A stretch of 63,992 nt of DNA, filler included, from Collodictyon triciliatum (lineage: Eukaryota): assembly GCA_043381765.1 (NCBI GenBank). It is 11 parts of 11 records of this genome, joined end to end, with 100 filler letters (N's around TTAATTAATTAA, not from the genome) between each part and the next. Parts side by side here need not be neighbours in the genome. Positions count along the whole stretch, not along the records: positions 56,595 to 62,769 come from JBHJMP010004659.1; 10 more parts are not named here. The stretch is one strand, 5' to 3'. The stretch's first letter is position 1. Each line of letters begins with the position of its first letter. Both the position numbers and the translations under genes were made by a program. The notes beneath the pieces are model-generated. The model ran no database searches and had not been told where the DNA came from. It saw only the letters and a list, made by a program, of their open reading frames with translations. Below are positions 57,735 to 62,607 of the stretch, in pieces.

Positions 57735-60700
57735 CCATATCTACATCTCCACTGTCCACAGCAAGAACGAGAGGCGTCTCCATATCATCATTTGTTGTGT
57801 CGAGATTTGCTCCGTGTGACAGAAGCATATTGACAAAGACAGAACCCAAGCCTATACATATGTCGAGAATAAATGAAGCGTGTGAATTGCGTCTTTGATA
57901 AAGAAATTCTGGTTTGCTACATAAAGATGGAAAACTATTCATCATTAATAAATCATTTAGGTTACTGTTTGAAGCCACTAAATGAAGCGGAGTGCTTCCT
58001 GAAAAATATTCACCGGCATTTCTATTAACCTTTGGATTTGTTGGGACAGATATTTAGGAACAGGCATAATTCATAGAAATAAAACATCATAATATACTGC
58101 AGTTGAAATTCAAATATTTATTTGGTGCTGCTGCTATGTATTTTTTTTTTCATACGTCTACAGGTGTATTTTCCAATAAATATTTTGTAATATCCTCGTG
58201 GGCGTCCCAAATAGCTTGGTGCAGTGGGCATGCACCTTTCTCATTTGGTTGATTAACATAGTTTCTGGGTTAAAAGAAAGATATTACTTTTTCTGTAATC
58301 TTAGTTCCATCAAAATGATCGAAAGAATAAAAAAATCTCAAAAAAAAAAAAAACGGAAAAAGCGGAAAAATAAAAGAGACGAAAATAAAAACAAATTCTG
58401 AAAACGGTTATTTTTTCAACATATCAAGTGATTACCTGAAAAAGGATGTATCTGTGCTCTTTTTTGCCTCACTTATTATATCTTTCACAATATCGAGCGC
58501 GCCTTTTCTGCATGCATGAATAAGTGGTGTGTTTCCTTCTTCATCCTAATAAAACAGATATCCCTTTGACTACACGAAATGACAACATTAAAAGCCAAAG
58601 GAATATTTGGGGCAAGAAGAGGCGGTCATCCGATGTATCCTATTGCTCAAAACGGACCGCTTTCGATATGTCTGCTCCAAACTCTCGCAGCAGAGAATAC
58701 AGCACAAATGACCCCTGGCTAATAGCCAAAATCAAAGGTGTGCATCCAAGTTCGTCCACGCTATCGACCTCAACACCACTTTCAAGCAGAAGCCTTGTTC
58801 ATCAATAAGTTTGTTTTAAGGTCACGTCAGTTGGAAGTATCATATAGATTGAGTCGAAAGAATGGCGTTGACCAATTTGCTGAAATGAATATATTGGAGC
58901 AGATTTTACAATTAAGTTATAAGACAATATGCAGACACAAATCTGCCGATGAAAAATCAATTTAAGACTAGCAGAATTACAATTAAGAAAAAAAAACCTT
59001 GTAATATTTTCATGTCCCTTGTAAACTGCGAAATGAAGCGGCGTACCAGTGATGTCGTCTTCAATTATAAAGCTCCGTCTATTTGTCTTGACTGCACTTT
59101 CCGTGGTTGATACTTTGGCATCTAGCAAGAGCTGTGGATAATAAAGTTAAATTTATTATCGACCATAAAGGAAAAGATAATGAAAAGTAAAAATTCAAAT
59201 ATATATAAATATATTCGTACACACATGAATGTAATCTGCAGTCACATGCAAAGAAAATCGATTATGTGGATTTACGGGATGATTCACGCACCTTTGAAAG
59301 GTAAAGGGACCCAAGCGCGGCTGTGATGTGCAGTGCATTAATGTTGGATGAGTTCACAGTATCAACCACAGCCTTATTTCCCAACAAGAACGAAACGGAT
59401 GCTGCTGCATTTTTTTCTTTACTAGAAGTGTAAATAACAAATTATTTCATACAACTCTTGATATTTCAAATGAATCTTTGCTTCATTAAAGAAAAAAAAA
59501 ACAACGGTAATCTGGTGTGCTTAGTTCCTGATTTTAATGTCTTACATAGAAAACTGCTCTTGGTTGAACTTAAATGAAGATGCTAATGTAGACACTGGTA
59601 GTTCAGATGCACTCGCAACAGCCCACATCAGACAAGTTTGACCGAAATCATCTTCTGCATCAACAGATAAGCTCTACAATCATCAGTGGGTTTGTAAGCA
59701 TTGCGAAATGGGCTGACAGAAAGGTTTTGCAGAGAAATCGGTTTCTGATTATGTTATGTAACTTAAAGAAAAATTCCTAATCGTAGGATGGTAATTTGTT
59801 TGAGAACTTTTTTAAAGTGTGTTTCCATGGCCTGAATATCACAATCGTAGGCACAGATCCACGGAACCTAAACAGAATACAAAAAAAGAGTAAATAGTTA
59901 AGATAACGAGATAATTTTGGGTTTAAAAAATATTACCATTGATAACTTTTCTCTATATATGTAATATACATAATGCAAGTCAAAGCCAGGTTTTTAACGG
60001 GGTCACATAATATATATCCTAATCTTTTCAAGCTAATTTCTTTTGAAAGAAAATACTGAAAATGGAGGCTCGCGCTTTAAACAATTTCCCGCCCACAGAG
60101 AGATAAGTGAAATGCCAAGTGTTTCAAAGTAGTCGCTGGGGCGAGGACAAACAACACTGACGAGGGCTGAAACCGCGTTCTTTGAAAAAAGAGGCCTTGT
60201 CGTTCTGTATCGACGTATTAGTGATTTTATTCAATTACATCGGATCTGATACTGAATCTTCGATTAAACCCAACTTTTTACTTACAATAAAAAATGTGTC
60301 AATTCGAAAGAAGAAAAGAAGTGAATGTAATGATTTAAGATAAACGAATTAATGCGCTCATTTGATACCGATTATTTATGAGTGTTCAAGCAACCTTGAA
60401 AGAAGGTCATTCCCTCCGATGAATATATCGTCAGTCATTTCAACAGATCTTTCGTGTATGCAATGCAGAAATGTGGAAATGGAACGAACAATCGCATTCG
60501 TTTCCTGAAACAGATATTGATTCGGTAAATTGGATGGGTGAATGGATTGTTTTATTGTGATTTTAGTGAAATGTATGCACAAAATGTAAATCAAATTTGC
60601 ACTCCAAATGGATATTTTACTGGGTGTGATGGATCCAAATTAAATCCTGATGCCAGTTCGACGAAATTGCAGGATTCAGTAGCACCTGACTAAAATTGAA

Positions 60701-62607
60701 TTGGGCTTTCTCAAATATTGGAAATCAATAAGGCAAAGGAGAATATAGAAATAATCATAATACATAAGCGGTCAATTCAAGATATTCGCATGTAAATTGT
60801 ATTTAATTTTAAAACCTTAAAGTACAAATGGAATGTAGCAACAAAGTGCGACTTTGAAGTGTTGCATTTTTTATAGGCTGCGTCAATAAGTTTCTTCACT
60901 TCTGCGACTGAGTGAACTTCGGTACTATGAATTTTGGTTTATTTTTGCCAAGGTCAGAGCAGAAATACATTTCCATAGCATTTCGATATTTAATGTGAAA
61001 GCGTGTAGTTAATCGAAAGGGAAATCTGAGATGTAAACTCTAATAGTTTTTTAATGTCAAAACGAAGGATTTACAAGGTGACGCTGAAATCATGGTCTTC
61101 TTCAACCTGAATGATAGTTTTGTCCATAAACATATGGTGGCTTATTCAATTGTGAATATGTTTTATCATTATCATTATCATTATCATTTGGTTAACAAGT
61201 AATTCTAGAAAACTAAATGATACCTAAAATGATTAGTGTTACATATCTACTATCACTTTTTACATATATATGAGTAGTATACGTGATTGCTCAGGGCTGG
61301 ACTCTGGGACTCCTCTGACAGTAAATCCACGTATTTGCTTCCCATACAAGCATAAACGCATATTTCAACTTTTTGAAACATCTCTTCATTTGTTTGGTTG
61401 TTCATGATTTGAATGCGTTGGAATAACTATGACGATGCATGTTAGGAAGCGCTTTAGTAAACGATAAAAATCTTCATTTTTCATAAGGTTTCAGATTCGC
61501 ATCGCTGGATGTGTTAAGAAGAATAGCAGTCACAAACATCAAAGCTGAATCGATCGACGAATGACCGAACTCCATTCAAATCCACATGCGTTAAACTATA
61601 ACCATCGCGACCATCCGCTGAGCCAAGTAGAATAACGCCGCATGGATTACCTTCGCATAATAATAATAATAATAATAATAATAATAATAATAATAATAAT
61701 AATAATAATAATAATAATAATAATAATAATAATAATAATAATAATAATAATAATAATAACAATAACAATAACAATAATAATAATGGTGACGATTTTATAA
61801 AGATATCTACGTTTCTATGATTTGTTTTGCATATCGAAGGAAGTCAAATCCGTATCGATATAATTTCATTATTTTACTCTGCCAACCCTATAAATAGTAT
61901 TCGTGAAATGAAGTAAACGAACCATCTAAAAAATGTTCCACAAGACTGGAACCGATGTCATCGTACAGATCCAATATGTCATCACCCTTTTCTTCCTTCT
62001 CGATGTCCAAAAAATCATAGATAAAATGAAATGGAAACTGGCGCTCTCGATCTAAGAACAAAACCGAGGTAATTTTTGAAATATATTCAAGTCCAAAAAA
62101 TTAAAAATAAATATAGTTATTTCATTAATTGTACATGTATCTCATTTAATACCGTTTTTTTATTATAATTATTAAAAAAAAAAACTCTGAGAATATTTGA
62201 CTGTTACTTGTTGTTGGTGACTTTATAGTGACCGAAGAATCTCCGAGCACAAGAATGGTGTCCGCCCTGCAGCATATTAAATTACAAAAAGAAAAGCACA
62301 CAATTAAAAATTGAAACAGTAAATAAAAAAAGATTATACGTGATATGATAAACCACACATATACATGAACTCATACGGGGAGGCAAGAGGCAAGCTCTTT
62401 GGGGGAGACCGAATGGCCAGAGCGAGGGTAATATACGTTGTTTCCGCGAGCTTATACGAGGAAAAAGGAATGGGGCGCGACTATGGGTTGTGAGGCGGAA
62501 GAAATTGCAGAGGAGAGTTAAACGAGAGCAGAATTACACCAAAGAATCATGTCGTGAGCTCACAGCTTGTTTGAAATGAAAGAGGTGATTCGAAACATCT
62601 CCCACTT
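57735..62607 (-). CDS. Divergent kinesin motor-homology domain fused to about 8 ankyrin repeats, multi-exon, both ends uncertain
   Basis: Kinesin-like motif order: ITLALAIRSP, RQFPFHFIY, LYDDIGSSLVEHFLDG, KYVDLL, TEVHSVAEVKKLI, SKSHFV, NFVELASG, ETNAIVRSIS, VCPRPSDYFETL. Ankyrin repeats follow (GQTCLMWA, GTPLHFAVYKGH, GCTPLILA, GNTPLIHA, ETPLVLA). Confidence 0.78.

Follow-up and report, generated by a model that had tools for sequence, protein, structure and literature searches.

Kinesins carrying ankyrin repeats and kinesin heads without motor activity have both been described. The gene reported here, which lies on contig C4659 (JBHJMP010004659.1, minus strand) of Collodictyon triciliatum, encodes a kinesin-like head with altered nucleotide motifs, spliced in frame to ankyrin repeats. 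Two kinesin-ankyrin proteins are on record in supplementary files 5, 6 and 8 of a survey of 1624 kinesins (Wickstead et al. 2010, PMC2867816), although an earlier, sequence-only reading of this DNA had known of no such architecture. One, Monosiga brevicollis 28628, is a kinesin-17 of the type KISc-DEP-ANKx6 with a PF00225 score of 329.9; the other, Phytophthora sojae 143005, is a kinesin-15 of the type KISc-Involucrin x2-ANKx2 with a score of 489.6, and the two fusions were judged unrelated by the authors of the survey (PMC2867816). Both resemble the present protein in carrying the head first and ankyrin repeats in the same chain. They have, however, conventional-looking heads and a DEP or Involucrin spacer, whereas the head described here stays below 15 bits in a local profile alignment and abuts the repeats. 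Both were compared by published architecture and scores.

Yeast Vik1 and Cik1 have a C-terminal head and a coiled-coil stalk, whereas the present head lies upstream of ankyrin repeats, shows an acidic microtubule face and has no visible stalk. They share with it a kinesin fold (here predicted) lacking the elements for binding and hydrolysis of adenosine triphosphate (ATP); they heterodimerise with Kar3 and bind microtubules (PMC4338441). Trypanosoma brucei TbPH1, a binder of active X2 kinesins, combines two Walker A substitutions with a coiled coil and with PH and homeodomain-like parts (10.1101/2021.09.29.462327). In contrast to TbPH1, the present head has lost the three nucleotide motifs and loop 12 altogether, no coiled coil was seen and the partner domain is ankyrin. 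Non-motile or very divergent heads, often used in signalling or scaffolding, are also known from Costal2 (Cos2), Smy1 and VAB-8 (PMC2867816), and KIF26A uses a kinesin head without motility. These four proteins are recognisable by the kinesin Pfam model, being among the 1624 collected, and none is described with ankyrins in the available part of that survey (PMC2867816). No dead, stalkless head abutting ankyrin repeats was found in the titles and abstract openings searched, which cover subscription journals thinly. The gene belongs neither to the active kinesins, nor to the Vik1/TbPH1 partner type, for want of a coiled coil, nor to the known KISc-ANK proteins. It is best read as a derivative of the kinesin superfamily working like a pseudo-motor scaffold. 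The novelty lies in the combination: a head that has lost catalysis completely and shows an acidic microtubule face is fused directly, without a stalk, to ankyrins. Each ingredient has a precedent.

In-frame splicing of the kinesin-like head to ankyrin repeats

The eukaryotic assembly comprises 75.4 Mb in 14,576 contigs. The window, i.e. the whole stretch of DNA that was analysed (63,992 nucleotides), consists of contigs of ~6 kb strung together with N-linker-N spacers, and C4659 occupies positions 56595-62769. The gene model has 20 exons, 682 codons without a stop and 19 GT-AG introns; base-shuffled versions of the model (n=1000) each carried at least 22 stops. The best explanation of the locus is one gene for one protein of ~700-790 residues, in which a kinesin-derived head (residues ~15-357) is followed by at least eight ankyrin repeats with no stalk. 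That a dead kinesin-derived head is fused to ankyrin repeats within one protein is held here with a probability of roughly 0.9.

Two runs of presumed transcript data, X1 and X2, contained 25% and 23% of the words of the gene region. Their contigs were placed on 57735-61655 only; exons 1-3 rest on splice sites and frame. X1 yielded a single contig of 2452 nucleotides with 15 joints across this range. X2 showed 13 of the 15, with loose ends at the remaining two, and depth was zero in both bins lying wholly within introns. Thirteen joints were GT-AG as placed. The two around the 60-nucleotide link exon would agree with GT-AG introns of unchanged length, provided that a single base at the exon edge differs, and the reading frame is unchanged under either placement. 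In X1 and X2 alike these two joints carry the transcript from the final exon of the head into the opening exon of the ankyrin array, indicating that the fusion is made by splicing and that the halves are not mere neighbours on a contig; a single transcript across both halves, as the sequence-only reading had proposed, was therefore observed. The P-loop exon was joined to the exon at 62051-61923 through a loose end in both runs. The gene is real and expressed. A third run, X3, matched nothing in the gene region, which is no proof of absence. A non-standard genetic code for the TAA after exon 10 was ruled out, as the RNA joint 60204/60395 removes this TAA.

Read in frame, the model has its earliest Met at residue 157. 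The N-terminal start would lie either in an off-contig exon, 63 nucleotides of the X1 contig being without a placement, or at an ATG at 62630-62628 spliced directly to exon 2. The X1 contig runs 340 nucleotides beyond the gap edge, which leaves room for at most ~113 further residues. The features are, in transcript order (E, expectation value; P, probability):

62564..62607, minus strand: exon 1 candidate, 44 nucleotides, inferred; AG/GT ends, open frame, without in-frame Met
62628..62630, minus strand: alternative exon 1, ATG with phase-0 splice to 62480
62377..62480, minus strand: exon 2, inferred from splice sites; beta-1 strand
62208..62266, minus strand: exon 3, inferred from splice sites, frame and profile alignment
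61923..62051, minus strand: exon 4, F.FD strand and helix 1; 3' end joined to exon 5 as a loose end (X1, X2); profile alignment
61538..61650, minus strand: exon 5, beta-3 and dead P-loop GSADGRDG (61624-61601); RNA joint 61426/61538
61283..61426, minus strand: exon 6, helix 2b, beta-4 and beta-5; RNA piece and joints; alignment
61075..61106, minus strand: exon 7, 32 nucleotides, acidic loop-8 region; X1 shows a joint on either side, X2 a joint and a loose end
60816..60924, minus strand: exon 8, helix 3 with what remains of switch I (60863-60846), nine profile positions deleted; RNA joints, alignment
60621..60689, minus strand: exon 9, ELASGF as what remains of switch II (60659-60642), loop 11 shortened; RNA joints
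60395..60504, minus strand: exon 10, helix 4 and loop-12 remnant (60429-60397); RNA joints
60057..60204, minus strand: exon 11, helix 5, beta-8, ETL motif and helix 6, with which the kinesin-like domain ends; RNA pieces from both runs; alignment
59808..59867, minus strand: exon 12, 60 nucleotides, sole link between head and ankyrins, no stalk; two-sided joints in X1 and X2
59546..59673, minus strand: exon 13, degenerate ankyrin repeat 1; RNA; Ank_2 E 0.27; leave-out profile P 0.002
59292..59421, minus strand: exon 14, degenerate ankyrin repeat 2; RNA; no Pfam match; leave-out profile P 0.013
58998..59131, minus strand: exon 15, ankyrin repeat 3; RNA; Ank_4 E 0.003
58658..58793, minus strand: exon 16, ankyrin repeat 4; RNA; Ank_4 E 1e-5
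58436..58545, minus strand: exon 17, ankyrin repeat 5; RNA; Ank E 9e-5
58156..58264, minus strand: exon 18, ankyrin repeat 6; RNA; Ank_2 E 6e-4
57966..58029, minus strand: exon 19, start of ankyrin repeat 7; RNA joints; Ank E 3e-6 (open reading frame 57736-58053)
57735..57851, minus strand: exon 20, completes repeat 7 and opens repeat 8; RNA joint; enters the assembly gap
57248-57734: assembly gap of 487 N, concealing the 3' end of the gene
57088..57197, minus strand: possible last coding exon (putative), beyond the gap; AG acceptor, open frame to a stop, no Pfam match

Eight ankyrin anchor motifs were found between residues 378 and 683 at a spacing of 33-58 residues, matching the count of about eight given earlier. 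Tandem 33-residue repeats are present according to Pfam Ank-clan matches, three pieces scoring above cut-off; repeats 3-8 are backed by Pfam, and repeats 1-2 are degenerate. Only exon 12, of 20 residues, lies between helix 6 and repeat 1; it resembled half an ankyrin repeat by eye and gave no Pfam match. No coiled coil was detected in the 682 visible codons (crude heptad score 1.03, compared with 1.20-1.58 in 21 controls), in agreement, for the visible part, with the earlier remark that no stalk is obvious.

Two long simple repeats were noted. One, (TAT)n at window positions 61660-61780, extends as far as the splice acceptor in front of the P-loop exon; the other has a 9-base unit and lies upstream of the gene, where the contig ends (62673-62769).

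Kinesin descent and the nucleotide motifs

In a local hhalign run at 21% identity the entire motor domain aligned with the kinesin profile, with the kinesin elements in order, as had been recognised from the exons. In exon 2, which aligns at the profile start, the RxRP remnant reads AIRSP, the Arg being retained and the Pro gone. Hydrophobic core columns were hydrophobic in 70 of 94 cases (100 shuffles: 55.6 +/- 3.8, maximum 65), and invariant polar or glycine columns were identical in 16 of 73 (shuffles: 10.9 +/- 2.9, maximum 21). Judged by these columns, the fold signal persists and the catalytic signal is within chance. The retained hydrophobic core suggests that the head would still fold as a kinesin head. 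Pairwise identity to 40 kinesin loci of the same genome was 12-23%; the top z score (2.5) belonged to a kinesin-5 locus, which is favoured by the kinesin-5-based profile. The kinesin-5 of this genome itself shares 42-55% identity with its best database matches, none of them a close relative.

The nucleotide motifs were compared with those of 95 control motors. In the P-loop GxxGxGKT the sixth-position G is replaced by R, K by D and T by G, and in switch II DLAGSE has become ELASGF (D to E, G to S, E to F); each of these six residues is invariant in 95/95 controls. In switch I NxxSSRSH a deletion of nine positions before the motif removes or shifts the Asn, and R is changed to K; N and R are invariant in 95/95 controls. 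The same holds for the helix-4 Asn, which is changed or deleted, and for each of the loop-12 residues P, Y and R, all three of which are lost. Six positions of loop 11 are absent from the profile alignment, and run X1 showed a further Gly-to-Ala change within the P-loop remnant, at 61611. Correct splicing might have restored GxxGxGKT; the exon ends fixed by RNA leave GSADGRDG. The sequence-only reading was thus borne out on the P-loop, on switch II, on the degraded HIPYRDSKLT of loop 12 and on the shortened loop before switch I. It over-read SKSH as a sign of death: SSKSH occurs in 2 of the 36 switch I motifs recovered from own-genome kinesins, next to an intact P-loop and switch II, so that SKSH alone does not indicate a dead motor. 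In kinesin enzymology, a motor that lacks the P-loop Lys and Thr as well as both switches can neither bind nor hydrolyse ATP; on this basis the head is predicted to do neither, and to be unable to step.

Other unusual kinesins were noted in the genome. The two with SSKSH (L003 on C8179 and L043 on C667) are otherwise canonical. L072 (G000:C731, ~1000-3000, plus strand) has the P-loop GHSNTGNT (Lys to Asn) with recognisable helix 4 and loop 12, and is a second candidate impaired motor. The divergent kinesins L082 (G000:C1717) and L075 (G000:C1745) have the P-loops GQSGSGKN and GQSLTGKS; their switch motifs were not recovered.

It is very improbable that the N-terminal part lacks a kinesin ancestry, or has since refolded, and that its motif order reflects chance or convergence. 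This possibility draws on profile searches: no single head exon, the longest having 49 codons, matched PF00225 in an exon-level Pfam search, and C4659 was absent among the 150 of 171 PF00225 matches listed as well as among 52 six-frame matches to PF16796 (Vik1/Cik1), a search that is insensitive when carried out exon by exon. Against it stand the ordered alignment of the whole domain and core columns above the shuffle maximum.

Relatives were sought with single exons of 42-57 residues, weak queries whose blanks do not prove absence. Exon 11 gave 34 candidates in a set of 5.8 billion proteins, none at E<=10, and four stacked head exons gave 300 candidates without a match. Pattern matches in Joint Genome Institute (JGI) metagenome contigs numbered 593, none being confirmed; the ESM Atlas gave a best value of 0.81 and no family, and PDB sequences one chance match (E 0.65). 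Within the genome, a DNA search for paralogues returned only the locus itself and five intron look-alikes of 70-80 bases, and exons 6 and 11 matched only themselves. When further kinesin-ankyrin genes were sought with a profile of seven repeats of this gene, one weak match (10.2 bits) was obtained in 51 stretches from 49 kinesin contigs. PF00225 and PF12796 shared no contig among the matches listed, a comparison in which 150 of the 413 ankyrin candidates had been scored and even C4659 was missed.

Microtubule face and possible uses of the head

The kinesin-microtubule interface comprises loops 7, 8 and 12, helix 4, switch 2 and helix 6 (PMC10586761). Over the interface segments the net charge of the head was -6, compared with +5.4 +/- 1.2 (minimum +2) in the 95 controls. 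The head was also more acidic than every segment recovered from own-genome kinesins for loops 7-8 (n=18), helix 4 (n=30) and helix 6 (n=22). The loop-12 Arg was retained in 40/40 own kinesins with a recovered motif (49 examined); in the head, the SKL Lys and the helix-6 Arg/Lys are lost as well. The acidic loops 8, 11 and 12 and helices 4 and 6 suggest that the electrostatic grip on the lattice has been lost or is weak. Loss of lattice binding is likely, and is graded no higher because the loop alignment is uncertain and Vik1 and Cik1 provide a precedent.

Chances appear about even that the protein acts as a monomeric, nucleotide-free rigid scaffold. The ankyrin groove would bind one partner, and the ex-motor fold would offer a second docking surface or serve as a cap or spacer for the ankyrin solenoid. 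The likeliest setting would be the cytoskeleton, where the protein would be placed via protein partners and not by walking. A scaffold or adaptor had been proposed by the sequence-only reading, and remains the best one; a Vik1-like reading with microtubule binding is weakened by the acidic face, which had been missed.

Several observations weigh against this interpretation. The two transcript runs come from one single study and are presumed, by a guess, to be RNA, none of the runs listed as containing the region being annotated as such, and both protein ends are missing from the model. The fold is supported by sequence profiles alone, whose local scores are modest (4.6-14.9 bits); the C-terminal half of the head by itself reached 2.5 bits (P 0.003), and a global run of hhalign (-M first) failed to align the head where the local run succeeded. 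The charges of loop 11 (1/16 own kinesins as low) and of loop 12-helix 5 (4/39) are within the own-kinesin range, and the helix-4 Lys (as Arg), the helix-5 Arg, the loop-11 Glu and ETL are retained. The charge sums hinge on how the loops are aligned at 21% identity, and a 3-residue insertion is counted in the helix-4 value. Also, Vik1 and Cik1 heads bind microtubules without nucleotide motifs (PMC4338441), so that motif loss does not mean binding loss, and no orthologue is at hand to reveal conserved surfaces.

Some of these observations would suit a static microtubule anchor, a possible use, clearly less probable than the scaffold, in which a nucleotide-free head attaches to the lattice or to tubulin and the ankyrins recruit cargo or structural partners to a fixed array, e.g. 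a flagellar root. The fold is predicted to be retained, helix 4 to helix 6 still align, and the loop-11 Glu, the basic helix-4 residue, the helix-5 Arg and ETL are present; Vik1 and Cik1 heads have a microtubule-binding site but no ATP elements (PMC4338441) and TbPH1 fractionates with the cytoskeleton (10.1101/2021.09.29.462327). The canonical face, however, has a net charge of -6 and has lost PYR, the SKL Lys, the helix-4 Asn and the helix-6 Arg/Lys, and three of the five segments are more acidic than in all own-genome kinesins. A role as non-catalytic partner of an active kinesin, of the Kar3-Vik1 or TbKifX2A-TbPH1 type, serving as foothold or cargo adaptor, is improbable. Vik1 and Cik1 pair through a coiled coil, whereas the present head passes to the repeats via a 20-residue exon, and the X1 contig, which may be incomplete, hides at most ~35 residues upstream of exon 2 and 113 downstream. 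TbPH1 likewise has a coiled coil (10.1101/2021.09.29.462327), and none was seen here. Such a role would nevertheless agree with the available accounts of Vik1/Cik1 and TbPH1, fully dead heads that pair with an active kinesin, and the genome has at least 49 contigs with PF00225 matches. Very little probability is given to a decaying chimera, i.e. an ankyrin gene in which the kinesin remnant has lost its importance. In its favour, no paralogue or orthologue was found in the searches with short queries, strain variants include the non-synonymous head changes G125A and D222G, and 3 of 6 strain variants are synonymous, which is not significant (p 0.15). At ~80% divergence from kinesins, however, no stop or frameshift has arisen over 11 exons and the core stays above the shuffles, which is not what neutral decay yields.

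The protein thus seems to put an old motor fold to a new, passive use as a scaffold. The few dead kinesin heads that have been studied keep contact with microtubules or with an active motor partner. The present head has apparently lost catalysis, stalk and basic face together, yet its core is retained and it is expressed in frame with ankyrins, which makes the gene a direct test of what the kinesin fold is used for once motor chemistry is gone. It is unlikely, though less so than pairing with an active kinesin, that the head has left microtubules altogether and survives as a free protein-interaction module. In the main kinesin survey, the 166 most divergent sequences were left off the tree (PMC2867816). 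Since no head exon reaches the kinesin Pfam model either, heads of this kind go uncounted. If the fold is indeed free of microtubules, pseudo-kinesins below Pfam detection would form an overlooked class, the motor counterpart of pseudokinases. The lineage may have grafted such head modules onto repeat scaffolds more than once.

Other genes in the genome and the window

A large NACHT family was seen in the genome, with ~40 matches above the Pfam cut-off over many contigs, many of them in single open frames of 1000-3400 codons. These frames contrast with the other genes seen, which are intron-rich, and some lie ~1 kb behind DUF4062 matches. By eye, L123-L124 (G000:C1310) presumably encode a myosin tail with IQ motifs, a coiled coil, a PH-like domain and downstream leucine-rich repeat (LRR) exons, and L126 (G000:C959) was taken to be a PH-like plus LRR gene. 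No gene joining a dead kinesin head to NACHT and LRR domains was located in 45 further stretches selected by DUF4062, NACHT and LRR matches; short look-alikes on contig C869 were discarded as chance because of their opposite strands. In the window, exons at 20719-25082 resemble by eye a P4-type ATPase (flippase), as we assume, and an intronless frame of 398 codons at 46496-47692 presumably encodes, again judged by eye, a pyridoxal phosphate (PLP)-dependent class V aminotransferase.

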